NCBI GenBank assembly: GCA_035537775.1
Contig: DATLLQ010000230.1
Location: 1,845-65,844 of the forward strand
Length of the DNA: 64,000 nt
Direction of reading: 5' to 3'
DNA from: Vicinamibacterales bacterium
GTDB lineage: Bacteria; Acidobacteriota; Vicinamibacteria; Vicinamibacterales; UBA2999
The notes under the pieces were generated by a model. It saw only the letters and a program-made list of their open reading frames with translations. It was not told the DNA's origin and made no database searches. The position numbers and the translations under genes were made by a program. Shown piece after piece: positions 11,969 through 31,057 of the stretch. The stretch's first letter is position 1. Each line of letters starts with the position of its first letter.

Positions 11969-13429
11969 TCATGGCAGTTGTGATTCCGCTCGGATGTCGT
12001 TCTCCCACACTGCGCTGTGCTGAGTCCGATTTTGGGCGGTGCGCGGCAATTCGATTACGAACTGTGCGCCCCTTCCGGGCCCTGCACTCGTGGCACACAC
12101 GGTCCCACCGTGCAATTCAACGAGATGACGAACGATCGCGAGACCCAGTCCCATCCCGCCGGTGCCCCTTCCCGGTTTGCCCTGCCGGAATCGCTCGAAT
12201 ACGTGCGGAAGGAACTCGGAATCGATTCCGACTCCCGTGTCGGCGACTTCCATGCGGAAGGAGTGGGAGGTATCCGTCAGCGACACCGTGACATGGCCGC
12301 CAGCGGGCGTGAACTTGATGGCATTCGCAAGCAGGTTCCACGCGACCTGCTTGAGGCGTACGGCGTCACCGCGGACCATTGAGTGGCCGTTACCGACTGT
12401 CGCGCGCGTGAGCCCGACCCCCTTGTTGTCGGCGCTTAGCCGCACGGCGTCAACGGCTTGCTGAATCACGTCATCCAGATTCACCTCGCCGATCGACAAG
12501 CGCATGCGTCCGGCGACGAGCTGGTTCGTGTCGATGAGGTCATCCACCAGCTGGCGCAACGAATCGGCGTTACGAGCGATGGCACCGATCGCCGATGAGA
12601 CGCGCTCGGGTTTGATCGCGTTCTCCTCGAGCATGCGCGACCAGCCGGCAATCGTGTTCGTTGGTGTCCGGAGCTCGTGCGAAATAACCGCTGCAAACTC
12701 ATCTTTCAGCCGAAGAGTCTCCAGAAGCTCCGACTGCTTGCGCTCAAGTGCCTCGGTCGACCGGCGCCGATCGGCCGTAAATCGCATCGTGACAACAAAC
12801 AGCACGCAGACCGAGACCAGCCCGAGCCCAATGCCGACGATGCGCGTCATCTGCGCGTCCCGATAGTCGCGATCTGCTGCGTCCGTTCGCGCGCGCAGTC
12901 GCGCGCTCTCGCGTGCCTCCATCCGGGCAACCACGACCCGCATGTCGTCCATCAACGTCTTGCCGAGGTGTTTCGCCACCTCGGCTTGTGCATCGCCAAA
13001 GGTGCCGTCGCGGCGCAGCGTGATCACCGACTCGAGTTCGGCAAGCTTGCGATCCGCGAGCGCCTTCAGACGCTCATAGTCCGCCTGTTGGTCGGGGTCG
13101 TCTGCCATCAACCTGCGCATCTGCGCCAGGTTCGAGTCGATGGCTTCACGTGCGCGAGTGTAGGGGTCGAGGTACGAGGGATTATTCGTGATGACATAGC
13201 CACGCTCGCCGGTTTCAGCGTCCAGGAGAGTGGCCAGCACCTGGTCGAGTGCCACTCGCGTCTGATAGGCAAGCTCGATCGATTCGTGTGTGCGGTAGAG
13301 GCTTTGAACGCTTCGGAATCCGAGGACGACCGTTGCGATAAGCACAATCACCGCAGCGATGAAGGCAGCCATCACGCCGGGAGTCAGGTGCTGCCGCAGC
13401 AGCGTCGACGCGTGTTCGCGCTCCCTCAT
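11969..13429 (-). CDS. CHASE3-domain sensor histidine kinase
   Basis: TM helix, then a CHASE3-like periplasmic region (LLDAETGERGYVITNNPSYLDPY) and a second TM helix. H-box ISHELRTPTNTIAGW. ATPase boxes NLLANAIKFTPAGG, DTGVGI and GMGLGLAIV. Confidence 0.85.
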   Translation of the reverse strand: MREREHASTLLRQHLTPGVMAAFIAAVIVLIATVVLGFRSVQSLYRTHESIELAYQTRVALDQVLATLLDAETGERGYVITNNPSYLDPYTRAREAIDSNLAQMRRLMADDPDQQADYERLKALADRKLAELESVITLRRDGTFGDAQAEVAKHLGKTLMDDMRVVVARMEARESARLRARTDAADRDYRDAQMTRIVGIGLGLVSVCVLFVVTMRFTADRRRSTEALERKQSELLETLRLKDEFAAVISHELRTPTNTIAGWSRMLEENAIKPERVSSAIGAIARNADSLRQLVDDLIDTNQLVAGRMRLSIGEVNLDDVIQQAVDAVRLSADNKGVGLTRATVGNGHSMVRGDAVRLKQVAWNLLANAIKFTPAGGHVTVSLTDTSHSFRMEVADTGVGIDSEFLPHVFERFRQGKPGRGTGGMGLGLAIVRHLVELHGGTVCATSAGPGRGAQFVIELPRTAQNRTQHSAVWENDIRAESQLP

Positions 13430-13456: not shown

Positions 13457-14590
13457 TTACTTCCGCGCGGGTTGCTGATACTCCGGTGCGAGCTCCTTGC
13501 AGGCCTCGACCTTGAACGGCGCGTCCGCCGGCAGGACGCTATCGGTATCCACGTACTTGTCCGCGAAGTAGTCGGAATCGTCGGCGACGATGTTGCGGGT
13601 GAGCTCGAGCGTTGTGGGATTCAGCGTGAAGCGCTCGACGACGTGCAGCTTGTTGCTGTGAGGGAGATTCCCTGCCAGGCTACCTGGCAAGAAGCCGACG
13701 GTGTCGACCACCAGCGTGTCGCCGTCCCAGCGGCCTATCGAATGACCGGCGCGGCTCGGCTTGATGTTCGCCGGGTGCGCGGTCATGTTCATCTGCACCA
13801 TCCGGGTCAGGCCGACGCCATATTCCATCTTGATGACGTTCGCGCTCTGCGTGATGCGGCCGATCGCGCCGTCGAACACCCAGTCGAACAGGATGCTCGT
13901 GGGCTGGCAGGAGAGCCGCGGGTTCTCCGACGTCGGCCGCTTGCGCAGCGCGTCTGCTGCCGCCTGCCCCGCTGCGGTCAACTTCACGGGCGGCGCGAAC
14001 CAACCGGCGGGACCGGCAGGCATCGGCACTTTGCCTTCCCTGATCGCCGCGGCCTGGCTGATTGGGACGAGCCCGGTGCGCCCACGCCCGGGGGGCGGCG
14101 TTGCCAGGACCTGCTGCTCCTGCGCCCAGTCGCCGGCGAGGTTCGGTTTGCCGTTCGACAGCCGGAACGGCCGTTTCGAGCGATTGACGGATTGGGCGTC
14201 GCTCAGCTGCTGATAGCGCTCGAGCGTCGGCTTATTGCCAAGAGTCATCGTCTCCACAGTGCACGCAGTCGGATCGTCGCGATGCGGGTGGCCCGCCACC
14301 TTGATGGTTGCGCCCCGCACGAACATCTCCTGCGACCAACCCGAGCGCCTGAGCACCGTGGCCCCCCGCGTCTCGCATTTCATCCCGATGACCTTGCCGT
14401 CGGTGCCGACGACATCGAAATAGATGTACGTATGCGGGTTGACGAAGTCGACCTTTGTCAGCTTGCCCTCGAGCTCCACGTTCTTCCTGACATCGTAGAG
14501 GCCGGCGCCGTGGTGCGCGGATACGCGTTCGACGAACACCGGTACCGTGAGCACGGTGGCGACGAGTACCGCGTGTGTCACTCTTGTCAT
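13457..14590 (-). CDS. Secreted two-domain protein of unknown function: an N-terminal domain like 28016..28426 fused to a C-terminal domain like 26025..26930 and 30014..31057
   Basis: Signal peptide ending VSA/HH. N-domain HHGAGLYDVRKNVELEGKLTKVDFVNPH. C-domain GKPNLAGDW...SIGRWDGDTLVVDTVGF...HVVERFT. It ends 27 bp upstream of the CHASE3 kinase. Confidence 0.7.
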   Translation of the reverse strand: MTRVTHAVLVATVLTVPVFVERVSAHHGAGLYDVRKNVELEGKLTKVDFVNPHTYIYFDVVGTDGKVIGMKCETRGATVLRRSGWSQEMFVRGATIKVAGHPHRDDPTACTVETMTLGNKPTLERYQQLSDAQSVNRSKRPFRLSNGKPNLAGDWAQEQQVLATPPPGRGRTGLVPISQAAAIREGKVPMPAGPAGWFAPPVKLTAAGQAAADALRKRPTSENPRLSCQPTSILFDWVFDGAIGRITQSANVIKMEYGVGLTRMVQMNMTAHPANIKPSRAGHSIGRWDGDTLVVDTVGFLPGSLAGNLPHSNKLHVVERFTLNPTTLELTRNIVADDSDYFADKYVDTDSVLPADAPFKVEACKELAPEYQQPARK

Positions 14591-21811: not shown

Positions 21812-24427
21812 TCAGCGCTTCTTCGCCGCCGCGTCGAGTTCTTGAAACGCCCGAAGCGATCGCAGCGATGCGAGGTCGTCGTCATCGCGTGCCTGGTGAA
21901 ACGGGTATCCTCGCTCGATCGCTTCCGCTAATCTTTTGACGGCGTCATCGCGCTGGCCAATGAGTGCCAGCGCGGCCGCCCGCCGATACAACACGTCCAG
22001 GTCGGACGGGTTTGTCGTGAAGGCACGTCGCGTGTACAGCTCGGCCTCAATCTTCGATCCAACTTTCGCGTAATACAGACCAAGCAGCGACTCCATCGCC
22101 GCATCGTTCTGGTTGACTTTCAGCGCATTCTCCCCGGCGTCGATTGCCTTGTTGTACGCAACCGTTGCATCCCTCTTCCGGCCGCCTTTGCGGTAGGCAT
22201 CACCTAAATTGCCCCAGTTCAACGCAATCTTCGGTTCGAGATTCGCCGCCCGTTCATAATCGCGAATCGCTTCGTCGTACCGTTGCTCGGAATATGCGAT
22301 GTAGCCCAGGTTCGCGAAAGAGACAGCGTTCGCGCGGACCTCATTGGACTTCTTGAAACTCTGGCTCGCGCGAACGCGATCGCCATCCTCGTCTCGCGCA
22401 AGGTACGTCGCGCCAAGCTGTTGCAGAGGCATCTCGTCATCGGGCTTGAGCTTCGCGAGCAGTGTGAACTCCCGAATAGCGTCCGCATACTGGCGGTTTC
22501 CGAGAAAGAACAGCCCGAGCACTTCGTGATTGAGCCAATAGTTCGGCTGCACCTCTAATGCTTTTTGAAACGCCTCGAGCGCTTCGCGCGGCTGCCCGGC
22601 TTTAGCCAGCAACTCGCCGAGCAGACGGTGTGCCCTGGGATTGTCCGGCTGATCCGCGAGCACATTTTTCACTTCAAGGACTGCCAGCGGCTGACGGCCG
22701 GTGGATCGAAGTACGGACGCCAGCGACAGCCGGACGTCGGGCTGGACGGCATCGAGACGCAGTGCTTGATCAATCGCGGTGACCGCGTCGTCCATGAGCT
22801 TTGGGTTGTTGGTCCTGACCGAGTGGCGCCGATACGTCTCGCCAAGCGCGGCAAACGCCTCCGCGAACTTGGAATCACGTGCTGTCGCCTGCTTGAACAG
22901 GCGAACGGCGGCGTCGAAGTCCAGGTCAGGTCGATCCAGCAGCTCCAGCCCCCGCAGATACGCGTCCATCGCCACTGGATCGTCTGAAGGCGAACGTGCC
23001 AGTTGCATGCGCTCTGGTACGCTGACCTTGACACGCAACGTCGCGAGCAGCGATTCGGCAAGCCGGTTCTGTATCGAGAACAGCTCGGCCTCACGATCCT
23101 CTGCCTTGTCGCTCCAGACCTGCCTCTCGTCGGGGGTCACCAGTCGGGCGATCACGAGCAGCCTGTCGCCCGACTGCTGGATGCTGCCTTGAACCAGCAT
23201 CGTTGCCCCGAGCTCGCGCGCGACTGCCTCGAGCCCGAGCGTAGCGCCAGCCTCCACCACGCTCTCCGATTGCGAGACGACGGTAATCGACGGCAAGCGG
23301 CCCAGCGAATTCTCCAACAACCTCGCGACGCCAAGGCCAAGGTGTGACTTCGACTCGTCGCCGGTCAGATTCGCGAAGGTCAGCACCGCAATGACCGGCC
23401 GCTCGGTGGTGTCCGTGACGTTAAGCCGGCTGAGAAGCGGGGCGGCGGCCAGACCACCAATCGCGAGGGCGCCTGCAATCAGCCATGCGGCGTAGCCATG
23501 CAGGCGCCGTTTTCGAACGGCAGTGCCGAGCGTCTGACTTCTGAGTGGCGGGCGGCCTCTGTCCGACGAGACTTCCGTCAGCACACGCCGCAGCTCCGTC
23601 TCCAGAGCACCCGCCGTCTGAAAGCGATTGGCCGGGTTGCGCGCCATGCAGCGGGCGATCGTTTCGGAGATTTCAGGTGCGATTGCGGGGTCCACGTCGC
23701 GCACGGTTCTGATCGGCGTGGTCAGGGCCGCGTTCCGAATCAGCTCCCCGATGTCGCCGTCATGCGGCCGGTGTCCAGTCACCAGCTCGAACAGCATCAC
23801 TCCCAGGGTGTAGATGTCCGTGCGCTCATCGACCCGATCGCCCAGGAGCTGCTCGGGCGACATGTAGGGAGGCGTCCCCATGATCTGCCCGGTCGTCGTA
23901 TGTACCCGCGGTTCGCCGTCCTCGCCCGTCGGCAGCGAGGTCTCGTGCTGGAGAAACTTCGCGAGACCGAAATCCAGCACCTTGACGTGACCGTCACCGG
24001 TCACCATGACGTTGGCCGGCTTCAGATCGCGATGGACGACTCGTGCGCGATGCGCGGCGCCGAGCGCGTTGGCGATCTCGATGCCGATCTCGAGCGCGCG
24101 CGCCAGCGACGGGCGTCCTTTCCTGACATGCGCCGCAAGCGTCTCGCCGCGCACGTATTCCATGACGATGAACGGTTGATCGCCGATCCGGCCGATGTCG
24201 TGAACCGCCAGGATCCGTGGATGGTTCAGTGCGGCGGTGGTCTGTGCCTCCTGCTCAAATCGCCGGAGCCGATCGGGATCGGCGGCGAAGGCGGAGGGGA
24301 GCAGCTTGACCGCGACGGTGCGGCCGAGCAGCGGATCGCGGGCCAGGTACACCTCGCCCATGCCGCCGGCCCCCAGCGGTGACTGGATCTCGTAACGACC
24401 GACTGAAGTGCCGGCGACTAGCGCCAC
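21812..24427 (-). CDS. Hanks-type Ser/Thr protein kinase with a TM helix and a C-terminal TPR array
   Basis: GAGGMGEVY...VAVK, HRDLKPANV, DFGLAK and GTPPYMSPE. A TM helix follows (AAWLIAGALAIGGLAAAPLL), then multiple TPR-like repeats. Confidence 0.9.
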   Translation of the reverse strand: MALVAGTSVGRYEIQSPLGAGGMGEVYLARDPLLGRTVAVKLLPSAFAADPDRLRRFEQEAQTTAALNHPRILAVHDIGRIGDQPFIVMEYVRGETLAAHVRKGRPSLARALEIGIEIANALGAAHRARVVHRDLKPANVMVTGDGHVKVLDFGLAKFLQHETSLPTGEDGEPRVHTTTGQIMGTPPYMSPEQLLGDRVDERTDIYTLGVMLFELVTGHRPHDGDIGELIRNAALTTPIRTVRDVDPAIAPEISETIARCMARNPANRFQTAGALETELRRVLTEVSSDRGRPPLRSQTLGTAVRKRRLHGYAAWLIAGALAIGGLAAAPLLSRLNVTDTTERPVIAVLTFANLTGDESKSHLGLGVARLLENSLGRLPSITVVSQSESVVEAGATLGLEAVARELGATMLVQGSIQQSGDRLLVIARLVTPDERQVWSDKAEDREAELFSIQNRLAESLLATLRVKVSVPERMQLARSPSDDPVAMDAYLRGLELLDRPDLDFDAAVRLFKQATARDSKFAEAFAALGETYRRHSVRTNNPKLMDDAVTAIDQALRLDAVQPDVRLSLASVLRSTGRQPLAVLEVKNVLADQPDNPRAHRLLGELLAKAGQPREALEAFQKALEVQPNYWLNHEVLGLFFLGNRQYADAIREFTLLAKLKPDDEMPLQQLGATYLARDEDGDRVRASQSFKKSNEVRANAVSFANLGYIAYSEQRYDEAIRDYERAANLEPKIALNWGNLGDAYRKGGRKRDATVAYNKAIDAGENALKVNQNDAAMESLLGLYYAKVGSKIEAELYTRRAFTTNPSDLDVLYRRAAALALIGQRDDAVKRLAEAIERGYPFHQARDDDDLASLRSLRAFQELDAAAKKR

Positions 24428-24519: not shown

Positions 24520-24606
24520 TCAGGCGCTGCGGTCGATCAGCCAGCCAAGGACGACGACCAGTACCACGGTGGCGGCGACGGTTGCGGTGACCAGCAGGGC
24601 GACCAT
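24520..24606 (-). CDS. Candidate 28-aa single-TM peptide
   Basis: MVALLVTATVAATVVLVVVLGWLIDRSA. Its ATG overlaps the stop of the upstream membrane gene by 1 nt (TGATG). It could be a chance ORF in high-GC DNA. Confidence 0.25.
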   Translation of the reverse strand: MVALLVTATVAATVVLVVVLGWLIDRSA

Positions 24607-25553
24607 CAGAACGACTTGCCCAGGAACGGAAGCATCCGGCCGGCGTAGAGCACGCCGAACCACGAGACGAGCGACAGGACCGCCATCGCCTTGTCGCCAG
24701 CGCCAGGCTGGAACCCGGCCTCGACGCGGCCCTCGCGGGGCCAAGGCTTCCCGAAGACAGTCAGATACAGGAAGTTGGCACCGGCAATCATCAGGAACGC
24801 GATCTTCCAGTAGAACGGGTTGCTCGCGGTGTACTGCCCCGGCTGGCCGACGAAGAAGAACATCCCGGTGATGAGATTGGCGCCGAAGCCAAGCATGCCC
24901 CACGGCAGCAGCCGGTGCACGTCGTCAAACGGAATCCGCCGCATCGCGCCGAGTATCCGCAGGTTCACGGCCAGCAGCACGCCGAACGAAAGGGAGAGTC
25001 CCAGGAAGTGAATGGCCTCTGCGGCTGGCCAGGCCCACGAGCTGTAAACCGCCACCTGGCCGATCGCGTACGCCATGAATCGCTTCGGGTCGCCTTCCGG
25101 CGCAGGCGCACCCGAGGCCAGGATTTCGGGATGGCGGATCTCGCCACCGATGTTCGCCGCACGCCCCATCACCACAAGCGACAGAAGCAGGAGAATCGTC
25201 GCGGCCGGGACAACACCCGCCGCCGCACGGCCGTGGCGCCGCCACTGCCACAACGCCAGCCATGCAATGAACCCGGCAAACTCCATCACGCTGAAGCCGA
25301 TGATCGCCGCATCCTGATGGACTCTGATCGCTTCGACGGACACTCCGGCAGTTTCGCGCAGTTCCTGATGAGCGGCCACGCCGCTGACGTAGACGGGCAG
25401 CGTCAGGAGCGCAATCAGGAAGAGCACCTCCAGCCCGACGTGCTTCAGATGCTCGTTGCGGCGGGTGTAGCCCAGGATCAGGAGGCCCAGCGCCACCACC
25501 GACCCGATGGTGGGCACATGGTTCATCACGAGATGGAGATGGGCGAAGTTCAC
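24606..25553 (-). CDS. Polytopic membrane protein (about 8 TM), unknown function
   Basis: Hydrophobic helices throughout. His-containing motifs HLHLVMNHVPTIG and GGEIRHPEI. The C-terminal half resembles the product of 25560..26024. GTG start. Confidence 0.7.
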   Translation of the reverse strand: MNFAHLHLVMNHVPTIGSVVALGLLILGYTRRNEHLKHVGLEVLFLIALLTLPVYVSGVAAHQELRETAGVSVEAIRVHQDAAIIGFSVMEFAGFIAWLALWQWRRHGRAAAGVVPAATILLLLSLVVMGRAANIGGEIRHPEILASGAPAPEGDPKRFMAYAIGQVAVYSSWAWPAAEAIHFLGLSLSFGVLLAVNLRILGAMRRIPFDDVHRLLPWGMLGFGANLITGMFFFVGQPGQYTASNPFYWKIAFLMIAGANFLYLTVFGKPWPREGRVEAGFQPGAGDKAMAVLSLVSWFGVLYAGRMLPFLGKSF

Positions 25554-25559
25554 GGCTGC

Positions 25560-26024
25560 TTAGAGAACGACATAGGCGAGCAAGCGGCCCGCGGTTACGG
25601 CGCCTGTCCAGGCCAGCACCGACACGATCGCCAGCGTTCTGGCGTTACTGGGAACCTCACCCTCGGCACCGCTCAGCACGTACTTGCGAAGCGGCATCAA
25701 CGTGGCGGCGCCGGCGACGACCAGCGACATCTTGATAAAAAACGGTACGGCGGTCCCCATCGTCGTCGCGGCCTTGATGAAGAGCAGCACGCCGGTCACG
25801 ACATTAACAACGAGGCCGATCGCAATAGCCGGAAAAACCCAGCGGTAGGACGACAAAGGAATCTGCCGGTTGACGCCAAGCAGACGCAGGTCGAGCATCC
25901 AACTGGCGCCGACGAGGACGGCCATCCCTGTGGTGTGAAGGGTGAGGACGGTGGGGAGCGCCCATATCGAAGGCGACTCCCCCAACCAGACTGCTAACGA
26001 CGACGACTCAAGCCAGGAGAGCAC
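25560..26024 (-). CDS. 4-TM membrane protein, unknown function
   Basis: LTLHTTGMAVLVGASWMLDLRLLGVNRQIPL... aligns by eye with HFLGLSLSFGVLLAVNLRILGAMRRIPF... of the next gene. Its GTG start directly abuts the upstream TGA. Confidence 0.7.
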   Translation of the reverse strand: MLSWLESSSLAVWLGESPSIWALPTVLTLHTTGMAVLVGASWMLDLRLLGVNRQIPLSSYRWVFPAIAIGLVVNVVTGVLLFIKAATTMGTAVPFFIKMSLVVAGAATLMPLRKYVLSGAEGEVPSNARTLAIVSVLAWTGAVTAGRLLAYVVL

Positions 26025-26930
26025 TCAGTGCCGATACTGTGAGCTGGCTTCTGTCTGTTCGTGGTCCGTGCAGGCTCCACGCTCTCCGACGATCGTGTTG
26101 TTACCCGCAAGTCGCATGGTGATGGTCGGCATGACCCACGGTTTCAGAAGCACCTCCGGGTCCTCGACAGTGACGTCGTAGGTAATCTGGTTCCCGACCC
26201 GGGTGAACTTCTCGATGACGCGCATCTTGTCGGAGTGGAACCACCCGCCGCGGGCGAGCCAGGTCTCGTCGGTAAAGCCGATGGAGTCGAGGACGAGCGT
26301 GTCGCCCTCCCACCTGCCGACCGTGTAGCCCATGAGGCTGTACTGGTTGGGCCGGTTTGGATCATGCGGCTTCCCGTTCAGCGCCACCATGCGGAACTCG
26401 GCATATCCGCCGGCACCGTCGCGGCCGCCCGGGTAGATCATCGTGATGTCGGTGTCGGTGTGGAAGATTCTCGACGGCGGCCCCTGTCGCGGAAGACCGA
26501 GCGCCAGGCAAGACCCAACCGGGTCGTACTTGTTCGTCCACTGGTCGAGCTCGATGACCTTGTTCCAGTGCTCGGGCTTGTACATCGGCTGATTCAGGCC
26601 GAGCCGCGAAGTCGACATGAACACCCAGTCTTCGCTCTGGTTCGTCCATTCCATGCACTGCTTGTTCTGGAACGGCGTGCACCGCCGGAACATGTCGCCA
26701 ACCGTCCAACCGGAACCCTGGACGCCGGAGCCGGTGATGAGGCCGCCAGCCTGCCAGGAGCCTGTCAGGTCGGGTTTCCCACTCGCCAGCTTGGGCGTCG
26801 GTGCGTTCGGATCGGGCGCTGGCGCCCCGCCGCCGCGGCCGCCCTGCCCACCCTGCGCGCCCAGGGGCGCCACGAGGAGACCGAGCGCTACGAGCAGGGT
26901 CGATGCCTTTAGCAAGTTCCTCACAGTCAT
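26025..26930 (-). CDS. Secreted protein of an uncharacterised family (GKPDLxGxW ... GRW[DE]GDTLV motif)
   Basis: The ATG at 26930 lies 2 nt after the upstream stop, with GAGG upstream. Signal peptide MTVRNLLKASTLLVALGLLVAPLGA, a GQGGRGGG tract, GKPDLTGSW and VGRWEGDTLVLDSIGF. The listed longer ORF overlaps the upstream gene. Confidence 0.7.
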   Translation of the reverse strand: MTVRNLLKASTLLVALGLLVAPLGAQGGQGGRGGGAPAPDPNAPTPKLASGKPDLTGSWQAGGLITGSGVQGSGWTVGDMFRRCTPFQNKQCMEWTNQSEDWVFMSTSRLGLNQPMYKPEHWNKVIELDQWTNKYDPVGSCLALGLPRQGPPSRIFHTDTDITMIYPGGRDGAGGYAEFRMVALNGKPHDPNRPNQYSLMGYTVGRWEGDTLVLDSIGFTDETWLARGGWFHSDKMRVIEKFTRVGNQITYDVTVEDPEVLLKPWVMPTITMRLAGNNTIVGERGACTDHEQTEASSQYRH

Positions 26931-26932
26931 CC

Positions 26933-28000
26933 TCACTTTCCAGCTTTCTGCACGCTTTCCGGAACCGGCACGATGACGTATATCTGGCCGATCTCGGTAA
27001 CCTTTGAGGTCACGTTGCGCACGGCCGCGCCGTTCTTGCGTTCGACGGTGGTGCCTGGCATCAATGCCTCGATCTTGAACAGCGGATTGTTGAAGTCCGC
27101 CCACTTGCTGTAGATGAATTCGTGGGTGTCGTTCCCGTTCTTCACCACCACGCTCTCTGGCAGGTAGTTGACGAGCGTCGCCGTCGCCGTTGCACCCGGA
27201 ACGTCAGGAACCGGGAACGTGAGCACGGCCTTCTCCACCGTCTTCTCCGTCACCCACGTCAGCGTCGTCGTCCCCTTCACTCCGGCAGCGGCCTGCCGAT
27301 CGAGCAGTGTGGCCGGGTTCTGGCCGAAGGACTGCAGAGGGTGCATCCCTGCTGCGCCAGCAATGGCAGCCTTGATCGAACCATGCGGGCCGGCCCACAG
27401 ACGAATCCGGCGGTCCGTGAGCGCCGCTCGGTTTGGAGTCGACTTGCCCTTGCCAGGAACGAGTTCCGCGCCCGGGATGTCGTCGTCCCAGGCGTAATCC
27501 CCGCTCATGTTCTCGACGATCGAGTAGGTCTGCTTGTTGGCACGCGTGCACCCGATGTCAATCCGGTATCCCGGGACCAGGTAGTTGGCCTGCCAGTGAT
27601 ACTTCGTGATCGTGCAGGGCTGGCCGTTCACCTGCACGGTGCCGCCCGCCCCGTAGTAGTCGAGCGTCTTGACCAGCTCGGACTCTGCGCCGCTGCGCAG
27701 CATTCCCATGTGCCAGGCCCAGTTGTAGAGAACGTCCTTCAGTTCCTTGGACCCTGCCGGAGGCGTATACGCACCGCCCCGCCCGCGGCCAGCAGCAGCG
27801 CCACCACCCGGACCACCAGGACCGCCGCGGCCCTGAGCACCACCCGGCCCGCCGGGACCCTGTCCGCCCCTGCCCTGCGCGCCGGCGGCCGGGCCCTGTC
27901 CGCCAGCAGCCGGAGCCTGGCCCAAAGCGGTCACACCGCTCAGGGCGACCACACACGCGAGCACACTTATCGCTAGAGTTCGTCGTTCAAACATGGCCAA
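26933..28000 (-). CDS. Secreted protein with a Gly/Arg-rich N-terminal tract, unknown function
   Basis: Signal peptide MAMFERRTLAISVLACVVALSGVTALG, then about 50 aa of GQGP/GRGG low complexity, then a globular region with no motif I recognise. Confidence 0.65.
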   Translation of the reverse strand: MAMFERRTLAISVLACVVALSGVTALGQAPAAGGQGPAAGAQGRGGQGPGGPGGAQGRGGPGGPGGGAAAGRGRGGAYTPPAGSKELKDVLYNWAWHMGMLRSGAESELVKTLDYYGAGGTVQVNGQPCTITKYHWQANYLVPGYRIDIGCTRANKQTYSIVENMSGDYAWDDDIPGAELVPGKGKSTPNRAALTDRRIRLWAGPHGSIKAAIAGAAGMHPLQSFGQNPATLLDRQAAAGVKGTTTLTWVTEKTVEKAVLTFPVPDVPGATATATLVNYLPESVVVKNGNDTHEFIYSKWADFNNPLFKIEALMPGTTVERKNGAAVRNVTSKVTEIGQIYVIVPVPESVQKAGK

Positions 28001-28015
28001 CTCCGAGGTATCCGA

Positions 28016-28426
28016 TTAGTCCGTGCCGTCGCCAAAGAAGAGAAGAATGTTCTTGTCGCCGAGCTGGAGGTTTCTGATGAATCCAGCCGGGTTGCCGTTG
28101 CGCGCTGGAAGGACCGTTACCTTCAGGAGCTCGCCGGGCTTCATCGAGGTCTTGTTGATGCCCTCGCGGGTCAGCGTCTGGACGGAGGCAGTGGTGAGAA
28201 TCCAGTCAACCACCTTGCCCTTGATCTTCTTGTCCGGCACGGAGAGCTCGATGTTCGCGTGCGGATTCACAAAGTTCAACTTCTTGAGCCGTCCCTCGAG
28301 GACGATCTCCTTATTCAGGTCGTACACGCCCGCTACGGCATGATGGGCCTGCAGGACGGCGCCGGTGTACATGATGCCGGCCGCGAGGAATCCACACAGT
28401 ACGAGTCGAGCGGTTCGTGAGCTCAT
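28016..28426 (-). CDS. Small secreted protein (resembles what I recall as DUF6152; unverified)
   Basis: The ATG at 28426 has GGAG 8 nt upstream. The signal peptide ends LQA/HH. Motif HHAVAGVYDLNKEIVLEGRLKKLNFVNPH is shared with the N-domain of 13457..14590. Confidence 0.7.
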   Translation of the reverse strand: MSSRTARLVLCGFLAAGIMYTGAVLQAHHAVAGVYDLNKEIVLEGRLKKLNFVNPHANIELSVPDKKIKGKVVDWILTTASVQTLTREGINKTSMKPGELLKVTVLPARNGNPAGFIRNLQLGDKNILLFFGDGTD

Positions 28427-28536: not shown

Positions 28537-29922
28537 CTACTCCGCGGGCTCGATCTTGAGAATTACCGCGTCGGTCTCGTCGGTCGCCACGTAAAGAAGG
28601 CCGTCCCTGCCCTGCTTCACGTCCCGGATCCGTCGCCGCAGGTCACCCAGCAAGGTCTCCCGGCGCAGCTCCTCGTAGTTCCTGTTGATCAGGATTCGAT
28701 CCAGGCGCCCGGTGCCTGGAATCTCCCCGTAGCGCATGCCGCTGACGAAGACATCGCCCTTCCACTTCGGCAGCTTGTCACCCGTATAGAAGGTGATGCT
28801 CGACACGGCAATCGCGGGCATCCAGTAGATGACCGGGTCGCGAATCCCTTCCTTTGCGAACGGCCCCTGCCAGGGACCGCCGTAGGTGCGTCCGAGGCTG
28901 ACGAGCGGCCAACCGTAGTTGGCACCGGGCACGAGGACATTGACCTCGTCTCCGCCGTTCGGCCCGTTCTCGATCTGCCAGATCGCGCCGGTGATCGGGT
29001 GTTTCGCCATTCGCAGGAAGGTGCGATGGCCATGCGTGAAGATCTCGGGTCTCGCGTCGGCGCGGCCAACGAACGGGTTGTCCGGCGGAACCTTGCCCTC
29101 GTCGGTCAGGCGCAGGATTTTGCCGCCGAGCGTCTTGAGCGACTGCGTATCGCCTCCGCCGGACGCGACGTACAGCATGCCGTCGCCACCGAACACAATC
29201 GGACCGCCGCTGCCGCCCTCACCCACGAAGATGTCCTTCAGGTCAGTGAAGCTTTTGCCGTTCCACACCGCGCGCGCCACAGCCAGCGTCGTCTGCTGTC
29301 CACCGCCACGCCCGCCTCGTCCTCCGCCCGCGGCACCACGACCTGCACCACCAGCTCCGGCCGCACCCGCGGGAGCTTGAGCACCAGCGGCACCCGCCGG
29401 TGCGGGAGCAGCCGCCGCAGGGGCGGGTGCGGCAGCGGCGGCGCCGGCGGCAGGCGGCGCACCTCCCGCTCGACCGGCCGGGGCGCCAAGTGGCTTGGTG
29501 TAGCTGATGTACACGTAGCGATTCGTTTCGAAGTTGGGGTGCAGCGCCAGGTCCGTGCCCGACAGTCCTTGCGCCACGGCCACAGGCCCGCCGGTCACGG
29601 GCTCGACCTTCCCGTTCCGCACCGCCTTGATCGCGCCACCGCGTTCGGCAACGAGCATCGTGTCGTCAGACACCCACGCCATGCTCCAGGGGTTGTTGAA
29701 GCCGCGGGCGTAGACCGACACGCGAATGGTCTGTCCCTCCCCCGTCTCAAAGCGGACCGGAGAATCTGGCAGCGGCGGCGACTTGAGGCCCTGCGGTGCC
29801 CTGGGCGTATTGCCGTTCATCGGCACGTCCTGCTGGGCGAATAGAGCAGGCCCAAGGCCGAAGGCCAAAGGCCCAAGAAGGCCCAAAGAAGCAATGGCGA
29901 GACGACGGAAGGATCTGGTCAT
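28537..29922 (-). CDS. PQQ-dependent (soluble glucose/sorbosone-type) sugar dehydrogenase-like beta-propeller, secreted
   Basis: Signal peptide MTRSFRRLAIASLGLLGPLAFGLGPALFA. Family-like blocks FNNPWSMAWVSDDTMLVAERGG, LALHPNFETNRYVYISYT, ILRLTDEGKVPPDNPF, IFTHGHR and NGPNGGDEVNVLVPGANYGWP. It carries an Ala/Gly/Pro/Arg insertion of about 67 aa. Confidence 0.8.
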   Translation of the reverse strand: MTRSFRRLAIASLGLLGPLAFGLGPALFAQQDVPMNGNTPRAPQGLKSPPLPDSPVRFETGEGQTIRVSVYARGFNNPWSMAWVSDDTMLVAERGGAIKAVRNGKVEPVTGGPVAVAQGLSGTDLALHPNFETNRYVYISYTKPLGAPAGRAGGAPPAAGAAAAAPAPAAAAPAPAGAAGAQAPAGAAGAGGAGRGAAGGGRGGRGGGQQTTLAVARAVWNGKSFTDLKDIFVGEGGSGGPIVFGGDGMLYVASGGGDTQSLKTLGGKILRLTDEGKVPPDNPFVGRADARPEIFTHGHRTFLRMAKHPITGAIWQIENGPNGGDEVNVLVPGANYGWPLVSLGRTYGGPWQGPFAKEGIRDPVIYWMPAIAVSSITFYTGDKLPKWKGDVFVSGMRYGEIPGTGRLDRILINRNYEELRRETLLGDLRRRIRDVKQGRDGLLYVATDETDAVILKIEPAE

Positions 29923-30013
29923 GTCGATCTCCAGGATGAATGGACCCGCGGATTGTATCGCCAAGGGCATCGAGCCGCTCGGCCCTGGTCCGCCGACGAT
30001 ACAATTGGCGGCC

Positions 30014-31057
30014 GTGAAGAGAACACATCCGATCGCGATGCTTGGCGCCCTGCTGCTCGGCTGCGTCGTTGCCGGTGCGCAGGCGCCTCCTCAAGGCCAG
30101 GCGCAACCGCCGGCTGGACGCGGGCGCGGCGCGCCGGCTCCTGCGACGCGGATCGTCAGCTTCGAGGCGCAGCCGGCGACGATCAAGCCGGGCGAGTCAG
30201 TGCTTCTGGTCTGGCACATCGAGAACCCACCGTCCGCGACAGGATTCAACGGGTTTGGGACACTCGAACCCGGTGTCGGGCGTGTCGCGCCGCGTGGCTC
30301 GAGGCGCGTGACGCCCGCCGCGACGACGACCTACACGTTGAGCGCTGGCGCCGTGACGAAGACAGTGACGGTGACCGTCCCGGGCACGACACCCATCACG
30401 GCGGCTTCCGGCGCATCGGCGGGCGCGAGCTCAGCGATCCGGCGGACGCCCGACGGAAAGCCGGACTTCTCGGGCATCTATGGCTGGGGAAATCTGTTCG
30501 GCGCTCGAGGCGGCGGTGCGGCGCCGCCCGCGCTCAAGCCCGGAGCGGAGAAGTATCGAGTGAGCCGCGGTCCGCAAGACACCGGAGCGACGTCCGACTG
30601 CCTGCCGCTGATTCCGCCAAACTCATTCGGTGTGCCCTATGAGTTCCAGTTCATCCAGAACAAGGACTATCTCCTCATCCTGCACGAGTATCCCGGAACG
30701 TTCCGCATCGTTCCGCTCGATGGCGAACCGCATCAGGCCGATCCCGATCCGTCCTGGCTTGGCGATTCAGTCGGCCGATGGGATGGCGACACGCTGGTGA
30801 TCGACACGATCGGCTACAACGACAAGACCGAGATCAACGGGTATCGTCACAGCGAGGCATTGCACACGGTGGAGCGGCTCACGCGCGTCGCCGATGGTGT
30901 CGAGTACGAGCTCACCATCGACGACCCGAATGTCTTTGCCGCTCCCTGGAAGGTGAATCGCAGTTTCCGGTTCACCGACGCGCCGCAGAAGCGGATCTTC
31001 GAGTTCGTCTGCGAGAACAACCGCGATTACAAGGTGCTCTTCGGCGACAGGAAGTAA
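30014..31057 (+). CDS. Secreted paralogue of 26025..26930 with an extra N-terminal Ig-like domain
   Basis: GTG 30014 gives MKRTHPIAMLGALLLGCVVAGAQA. Ig-like segment IVSFEAQPATIKPGESVLLVWHIE...TYTLSAGAVTKTVTVTV. Then GKPDFSGIY, VGRWDGDTLVIDTIGY and HTVERLTR. Confidence 0.7.
   Translation: MKRTHPIAMLGALLLGCVVAGAQAPPQGQAQPPAGRGRGAPAPATRIVSFEAQPATIKPGESVLLVWHIENPPSATGFNGFGTLEPGVGRVAPRGSRRVTPAATTTYTLSAGAVTKTVTVTVPGTTPITAASGASAGASSAIRRTPDGKPDFSGIYGWGNLFGARGGGAAPPALKPGAEKYRVSRGPQDTGATSDCLPLIPPNSFGVPYEFQFIQNKDYLLILHEYPGTFRIVPLDGEPHQADPDPSWLGDSVGRWDGDTLVIDTIGYNDKTEINGYRHSEALHTVERLTRVADGVEYELTIDDPNVFAAPWKVNRSFRFTDAPQKRIFEFVCENNRDYKVLFGDRK

Follow-up and report, generated by a model that had tools for sequence, protein, structure and literature searches.

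The 64-kb stretch of contig DATLLQ010000230.1 analysed here (hereafter the window; G+C content 64.7%) comes from a Vicinamibacterales bacterium of the Acidobacteriota and carries, at positions 13457–14590 of the minus strand, a gene in which two protein domains that are also encoded separately in the same window are joined into one product. The N-terminal domain belongs to DUF6152, a Pfam family of unknown function, and the C-terminal domain (hereafter the C domain) to an unnamed family. The gene and its parts are listed below with the evidence for each, where pLDDT is the predicted local distance difference test of the AlphaFold2 model.

13457–14590, minus strand: whole fused gene, 377 amino acids plus stop codon, ATG start (open reading frame (ORF) list, full-length homologues, AlphaFold2 model)
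14516–14590, minus strand: predicted Sec signal peptide, residues 1–25, ending ...ERVSA directly before a His-His pair (sequence; low pLDDT in the model)
14216–14515, minus strand: DUF6152 domain, residues 26–125, with a predicted oligonucleotide/oligosaccharide-binding (OB) fold (Pfam, Foldseek, residue conservation)
14432–14440, minus strand: NPH motif containing H53, within the DUF6152 domain
14153–14215, minus strand: inter-domain linker, residues 126–146 (alignment of fused proteins, pLDDT)
13460–14152, minus strand: unnamed C domain, residues 147–377 (BLASTP, conservation in 213 domains, barrel resembling fatty-acid-binding proteins (FABPs))
13460–14152, minus strand: within the same domain, the motif GRWDGDTLVVDTVGF, with GRWDGDTL at 13712–13735 (sequence)

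The Pfam model of DUF6152 (PF19649) matched residues 23–106 of the fused protein with an E-value of 5e-18 and 65.4 bits, against a gathering threshold of 27, and the signature of the family (a His-His pair after the predicted cleavage site, an Asp, and NPH) was present. The C domain consists of a GKPNLAGDW lead-in followed by a beta-barrel core, in which C228 and C364, R263, E319, and D338 are conserved. Among 42 sequences containing a C domain, this region matched no Pfam model even at E ≤5, and the lipocalin and FABP models likewise gave zero matches at that threshold; NCBIfam yielded no matches to the C domain, and sequence searches of the PDB, with a single sequence and with a profile, yielded no relatives.

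Three other genes in the window encode homologues of one or other half of the fused protein.

28016–28426, minus strand: stand-alone secreted DUF6152 protein, 136 amino acids (Pfam, E 1.8e-21, 76.5 bits)
26025–26930, minus strand: stand-alone secreted C-domain protein, 301 amino acids (BLASTP against the fused protein, E 1e-12; barrel in the core of the AlphaFold2 model)
30014–31057, plus strand: third C-domain protein, 347 amino acids (BLASTP against the fused protein, E 1e-16; three-way alignment)

An earlier note, made by eye from the sequence, had proposed that the N-terminal ~110 residues of the fused protein resemble the whole protein encoded at 28016–28426, and had named an insignificant similarity as grounds for dropping the idea. 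The formal alignment bore the proposal out (BLASTP E 1e-15, 34% identity over 112 residues), and both sequences belong to DUF6152; the small protein is, moreover, 100% identical to a protein named 'DUF6152 family protein' from a Vicinamibacterales metagenome-assembled genome. The two separately encoded C domains matched each other with an E-value of 7e-23, and the identity between the fused and split versions in the window was 31–39%. The note had also listed ordered motifs common to the three C domains, and in a three-way alignment these occurred in the same order throughout (GKP[DN]xxG, a Cys block, GRW[DE]GDTLV.D..G, HS...VE..T, and a C-terminal Cys); the exception concerns the first motif in its original wording, since the protein encoded at 30014–31057 reads GKPDFSGIY, with Tyr in place of the Trp. 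When all six frames of the window were scanned, GRWxGDTL was found in exactly three copies, all in the three C-domain genes, and xxNPH in two genuine copies, in the fused gene and at 28016–28426. The separate genes had been placed together in a 24.5–31 kb operon, which holds for 28016–28426 and 26025–26930, whereas 30014–31057 lies on the opposite strand, outside the minus-strand operon. These comparisons confirmed that the window contains a fused gene together with separately encoded homologues of both its halves.

The fused architecture was not confined to this genome. A search of 5.8 billion proteins with the fused protein returned 4,496 matches, and among those listed at least 120 clusters at 90% identity were all full length (365–400 amino acids) and 83–99% identical to the query, some of the near-identical clusters bearing the name 'DUF6152 family protein [Vicinamibacterales bacterium]'. 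An exhaustive search of representatives at 50% identity returned 6,823 relatives (148 at E ≤1e-30); among those listed, at least 46 were 340–450 amino acids long, and ~41 of these were full-length fused proteins with 26–48% identity. Carriers of fused proteins belonged to the Acidobacteriota, Gammaproteobacteria, and Alphaproteobacteria, and fused homologues of 421–570 amino acids contained zero additional Pfam domains. The gene at 13457–14590 thus encodes a genuine, ancient two-domain protein that is predicted to be secreted. In an alignment of 42 fused proteins, no internal signal peptide was present between the domains, and a Cys pair, C72 and C110, proved particular to the fused lineage.

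When the domains were clustered by the unweighted pair group method with arithmetic mean (UPGMA) on identity distances, which is short of a proper phylogeny, the nearest neighbour of a fused domain was also fused for 47 of 54 N domains and 54 of 56 C domains; one 45-leaf cluster of C domains was 93% fused, and the split forms fell in one large cluster. Because the fused and split domains cluster apart, the fusion is old and happened once or a few times, and for the same reason the fused gene of the window is a deep paralogue of the operon's genes and did not arise by joining them. The two forms coexist in one genome. In related Vicinamibacterales, the split operon was kept in the order DUF6152, a 354-residue protein, C, DUF6644, and a protein of ~305–314 residues, with a fused gene 4–6 kb away, and another relative carried two fused paralogues 2 kb apart.

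The note had called for a survey of fused and split architectures, which we carried out in two parts. The genome survey covered 80 species-representative loci seeded with W[ED][GD]D[TIV]L[VI]V, a motif of the C domain, and scanned with N and C hidden Markov models (HMMs) built in this analysis (loci are cited by L-numbers where needed), and the metagenome survey covered 80 loci seeded with DUF6152 motifs. In the genome loci together with L001, 48 fused, 65 N-only, and 104 C-only ORFs were found, numbers that come from motif-seeded, similarity-ranked samples, as do those of the metagenome survey, and so do not give an unbiased ratio of fused to split forms. Forty-nine of the 65 N-only ORFs directly adjoined a C-only gene on the same strand (31 with N first and 18 with C first), and a further seven had a C-only gene within 2 kb. 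The metagenomes gave a similar picture: after 24 N genes on contigs too short to judge had been left out, 50 of 58 stand-alone N genes adjoined a C gene (36 N first, 14 C first), and most of the eight that were non-adjacent, although their flanks reached 1 kb or more, had a C gene within ~0.5 kb or in divergent orientation. Direct adjacency therefore amounted to 75–86% across both surveys, with an intergenic gap that was usually tens of bases or less, and the functional link that the note had drawn from the fusion was upheld from this independent side. The carriers in the genome survey were Vicinamibacterales, Bryobacteraceae, Terriglobia, and Acidiferrales among the Acidobacteriota; Steroidobacterales, Pseudohongiellaceae, and Rariloculaceae among the Gammaproteobacteria; and Sphingobium, Novosphingobium, and Rhodospirillaceae among the Alphaproteobacteria. 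The DUF6152 and C domains thus form a widespread two-part unit, mostly encoded by adjacent genes in either order and, in a minority lineage, fused with N before C.

Several copies of the fused or split module were often found in one genome. A tandem of fused, N, and C genes on one strand recurred in eight loci, and some genomes contained runs of four to six modules (L023 and L041). On sphingomonad plasmids, we found the order DUF6152, DUF6152, hypothetical (C), and TonB-dependent receptor, as well as C-N-C-N arrays. In 11 loci, N and C shared a reading frame and were parted by just one stop codon. Stop-codon readthrough or selenocysteine incorporation was rejected for these loci, where the stops were TAA, TAG, or TGA and the C genes had their own start and signal peptide; the rate of same-frame arrangement (~11 of 23 pairs) was not clearly above the one-third expected by chance. 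As the split C genes bear their own start codons and predicted signal peptides, both partners would be exported separately. The pairwise distances of the N and C domains were correlated, both among the 90 split pairs (r = 0.51) and among the 51 fused proteins (r = 0.65; permutation control, 0.00 ± 0.06), a correlation to which shared species history contributes.

These results support a Rosetta-stone reading of the DUF6152 and C domains, in which the split proteins would also be in contact. Each half of the fused protein resembles a different separate protein, the two halves are truly encoded by one gene, and the link is specific, with independent neighbourhood evidence and no promiscuous domains. 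The method, also known as domain fusion, was reportedly introduced by Marcotte et al. and Enright et al. in 1999 for predicting functional links. The present case resembles other Rosetta-stone cases in that both halves are homologous to separate proteins and the link is backed by a conserved gene neighbourhood; it differs in that the composite and its components coexist as deep paralogues instead of replacing one another between genomes.

Residue conservation drew attention to the N-terminus of the DUF6152 domain. In 194 such domains, fused and split, H26, H27, P52, and H53 were conserved in 100%, N51 in 97%, and D32 and E73 in 94%. The alignment of fused proteins showed H26, H27, N51, P52, H53, C228, and G286 to be invariant, with C72, E73, R82, G84, W85, and C110 near-invariant in the N part and G153, W155, R263, E319, D338, and C364 in the C part. 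Among 213 C domains, the conserved positions were G153, W155, C228, R263, the GxSxGxWxGDTL block, E319, R320, D338, and C364, and no His was conserved. The residue before the His-His pair was Ala, Gly, Ser, or Thr in all 203 evaluable DUF6152 domains, a hydrophobic run lay upstream in 196 of the 203, and position −3 was mostly Ala, Val, or Leu. Because a small residue precedes the pair with a hydrophobic run upstream, H26-H27 is the predicted mature N-terminus after signal-peptide cleavage. Irrespective of fold, an N-terminal His exposed in this way chelates transition metals (PMC12537917), and H26, H27, D32, H53, and E73 are therefore put forward as candidate ligands of a putative transition-metal site, with H27 and H53 as candidates for the second His of a histidine brace.

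AlphaFold2, run on the 42-sequence alignment, modelled the fused protein with a pLDDT of 88.7 and a predicted template modelling score (pTM) of 0.85. In the N domain, DSSP assigned strands at residues 38–48, 54–61, and 67–74, a helix at 77–82, and strands at 95–103 and 109–117, and the predicted five-stranded barrel, in which a helix separates strands 3 and 4, corresponds to an OB fold. Foldseek searches of the PDB with this domain returned SSB, PriB, and the N-domain of LysRS with a probability of 1.0 and target template modelling (TM) scores of 0.5–0.66. In the model, H53 at the start of strand 2 and E73 at the end of strand 3, which run antiparallel, should be neighbours. Because strands 3 and 5 pair in OB folds, C72 and C110 could form a disulfide in the fused lineage. 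The core of the C domain found its best structural matches among FABPs (myelin P2 and FABP3/4/5), with ~125 aligned positions and a probability near 1.0, but the match was weak (E 5e-3, target TM score ~0.5, 9–11% identity), as was the model of the stand-alone C protein (pLDDT 67.9). The pLDDT of the linker was 72 at residues 131–140 and exceeded 90 in the flanking blocks. With the larger domain making up ~60% of the chain, a pTM of 0.85 points to a confidently fixed inter-domain arrangement, and the two domains would thus be held in a fixed position relative to each other in the fused protein.

A literature search on DUF6152, on DUF6644 (a family met in the operon, see below), on their Pfam accessions, and on a histidine brace combined with an OB fold found nothing in the library searched. 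Relative to the Pfam definition of DUF6152, the fused N domain and the small operon protein clear the gathering threshold by a wide margin, and the fused protein adds an unnamed domain of ~230 residues beyond the model, plus the C72/C110 pair. Families with an N-terminal His have been collected by signal-strapping, namely DUF4198, DUF6702, and the 'anglerases', and DUF6152 is not among them (PMC12537917). Like these and like the histidine-brace proteins LPMO, CopC, and YcnI, DUF6152 has a predicted cleavage site directly before a strictly conserved His, and it has further invariant His and highly conserved Asp and Glu residues. In contrast to them, its predicted fold is an OB fold rather than an Ig-like, cupredoxin-like, or beta-sandwich fold, its N-terminus is His-His, and its metal binding is putative. 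None of these families is known to have an obligate barrel partner. Small secreted five-stranded barrels of ~100 residues are also found in CusF, which binds metal through His, Met, Met, and Trp, and in BOF (YgiW/YdeI). DUF6152 has no sequence relationship to either, since its only Pfam match is DUF6152, and its set of candidate ligands differs; we know of no N-terminal His-His pair or calycin partner in CusF or BOF. The calycin superfamily (FABPs and lipocalins) supplied the best, albeit weak, structural matches of the C core, yet the C domain is distinguished by its ~230-residue length, its long GKPDxxGxW lead-in, a helical insert, and a conserved disulfide.

The remaining genes around the fused gene and the operon were as follows.

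11969–13429, minus strand: CHASE3 sensor histidine kinase, starting 27 nt past the stop codon of the fused gene, on the same strand
21812–24427, minus strand: large Ser/Thr protein kinase whose C-terminal region is rich in TPRs; located between fused gene and operon
24606–25553, minus strand: 315-residue membrane protein with a DUF6644-like C-terminal half, matching 25560–26024; end of the operon
25560–26024, minus strand: DUF6644 membrane protein (Pfam, E 3.8e-7)
26933–28000, minus strand: 355-residue secreted protein whose low-complexity N-terminus is rich in Gly, Pro, and Ala; located between the DUF6152 and C genes of the operon
28537–29970, minus strand: GSDH-family gene, encoding a protein similar to pyrroloquinoline quinone (PQQ)-type glucose/sorbosone dehydrogenases (Pfam GSDH, E 3.1e-86)

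The GSDH gene heads the operon, upstream of the DUF6152 gene, and its homologues were found near modules in three unrelated loci; the C-domain gene at 30014–31057 is divergent from it, 43 nt away. The protein encoded at 26933–28000 matched no Pfam family, and the possibility that it is a diverged N or C domain was rejected, its scores with the N and C HMMs being at noise level. Counterparts were found at 1098–2162 of L001, an orthologue in the same position, and at 708–1577 of L069. The 120 closest homologues listed for the protein at 26025–26930 were 283–317 amino acids long, all named 'hypothetical', and without a Pfam match. DUF6644-type pairs like that at the operon end occurred beside modules in at least nine other loci from three classes (Acidobacteriota, Gammaproteobacteria, and Alphaproteobacteria), with H30, R47, G78, F95, K98, W139, G146, and R147 invariant in 20 DUF6644 sequences, and such a pair may be a membrane partner of the module. 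Co-transcription of the fused gene with the CHASE3 kinase gene is possible, but the kinase was rejected as a part of the system, the pairing not being kept in three related genomes. The genes directly flanking the fused gene, in the window the CHASE3 kinase gene and a GH3 gene, showed no conservation. In two other loci, L001 and L165, Ser/Thr kinases with PD40/Tricorn-like domains adjoined the fused gene. Cytochrome c domains were found in two of the first 146 flanking ORFs scanned against Pfam and in three of the second 86, and this second batch also contained three PSD/PSCyt proteins and three DUF6644 proteins. No Rfam family, metal riboswitches included, reached the gathering score anywhere in the window, and viral contigs contained zero relatives of the protein encoded at 28016–28426. 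Taken together, the neighbours hint, if weakly, at a redox or uptake function in the periplasm and not at classical metal homeostasis.

The reading that we consider probable is that the object is a two-part secreted module whose split members would dock in the periplasm, after separate export, in the same arrangement as the domains of the fused protein. The cut by signal peptidase would leave His26-His27 as the mature N-terminus of the DUF6152 domain, and this free pair, jointly with Asp32, the NPH-motif residue His53, and Glu73, would form a transition-metal site like those of N-terminal-histidine proteins, while the barrel would provide a ligand pocket or a docking surface. A periplasmic redox or uptake role might follow, the clues being the DUF6644 pairs, PQQ-type dehydrogenases, cytochrome c proteins, and TonB-dependent receptors. 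Several observations weigh against this reading. The metal site is predicted from sequence alone, and the His-His segment has low pLDDT in the fused model; the packing of the two domains is read from a single measure, pTM. Among the 232 flanking ORFs scanned, the neighbours were heterogeneous, with no dominant partner family and zero metal-homeostasis genes, and even the top family, TonB-dependent receptors, accounted for just 4 of the first 146; gene context thus lends the proposed function little support. The seeding of the surveys and the use of UPGMA, both described above, count on the same side, as do the excess of C-only over N-only genes with its common N-C-C arrays, the unrelated gene that parts the operon's DUF6152 and C genes, and the gene at 30014–31057, where another beta-rich N-terminal domain of ~110 residues, with zero significant Pfam matches, replaces DUF6152 and constitutes a second architecture of the C domain.

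The last three of these observations would also be expected if the domains were functionally linked but formed no stable complex when split, acting in consecutive steps or handing over a ligand transiently, with the fusion reflecting co-regulation and co-localization only. The N-N-C arrays that were also present in the genome loci and the variable gene order (31 against 18 in the genome survey) fit this view as well, whereas the fixed arrangement implied by the pTM, the tightness of the adjacency, and a co-divergence of split pairs that comes near the covalent value make it unlikely. A further explanation denies that the fusion is specifically informative about the two proteins of the operon, holding the fused gene and the split genes to be independent paralogues with different jobs. 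Their low mutual identity, their two separate deep clusters, their coexistence in one genome, including arrays of fused, N, and C genes, and the extra partners of the operon that the fused gene lacks (the 355-residue protein, the two DUF6644-type proteins, and the GSDH protein) would agree with this; yet all universally conserved residues are common to the fused and split forms, the pairing of the split genes is supported separately by their adjacency in other genomes, and the fused gene lies close to the split operon in related Vicinamibacterales, so that we regard the explanation as quite improbable. That the fusion is merely an assembly, sequencing, or frameshift artefact joining neighbouring genes, the second ground for refutation given in the note, can be practically dismissed. 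The adjacent N-C pairs of other genomes, 11 of them in frame with a single stop, show that a lost stop codon could in principle mimic a fusion, but the 90%-identity clusters come from many assemblies with the same architecture of 375–379 amino acids, the ~41 full-length representatives diverge down to 26% identity, and the fused lineage has its own Cys pair, no internal signal peptide, a confidently modelled linker, and domains that cluster apart from the split type.

The nature of the conserved N-terminal residues admits another explanation, namely that His-His is not a metal site and that the module serves in the periplasm as a carrier of, or an accessory for, ligands that are hydrophobic or imported through TonB. 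The barrel would then be the binding pocket and the OB fold a lid, and the conserved His, Asp, and Glu residues would have structural or ligand-contacting roles. The resemblance of the barrel to FABPs, the place of TonB-dependent receptors as the top neighbour family and on the flanks of modules on sphingomonad plasmids, the lack of metal-homeostasis genes among the neighbours, and the many tandem paralogues per genome (as in L023 and L041), which suit substrate diversity better than metal handling, are all consistent with a carrier. On the other hand, three invariant His residues with an Asp and a Glu, the first His at the predicted mature N-terminus, are what metal sites typically show (PMC12537917), the structural resemblance to FABPs is weak, and the association with TonB-dependent receptors is rare; a carrier without a metal site therefore seems rather unlikely to us. 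In the other direction, the two-part module with a metal site could be taken further, to a new and abundant class of secreted metalloproteins of soil Acidobacteriota and Proteobacteria, with a histidine-brace-like centre at an N-terminal His-His pair on an OB fold that needs a calycin-like partner subunit or domain. Such a module might act as a redox enzyme in the periplasm, with DUF6644 pairs, cytochromes c, or PQQ dehydrogenases as its suppliers. We mention this extension as a tentative possibility, and a somewhat doubtful one.

The object described here is an uncharacterized, very widespread two-part secreted module. Thousands of proteins of soil and sediment bacteria bear one or both of its domains (6,823 representatives at 50% identity), and a domain of unknown function and a family without a model, whose members are named 'hypothetical protein', become one defined unit with a testable metal-site hypothesis. 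For annotators, this argues for giving the C domain a family model of its own. As a scaffold for metal sites at an N-terminal His, the module is a new candidate and, if the predicted site of DUF6152 is real, it would extend the range of scaffolds among the N-terminal-histidine metalloproteins.

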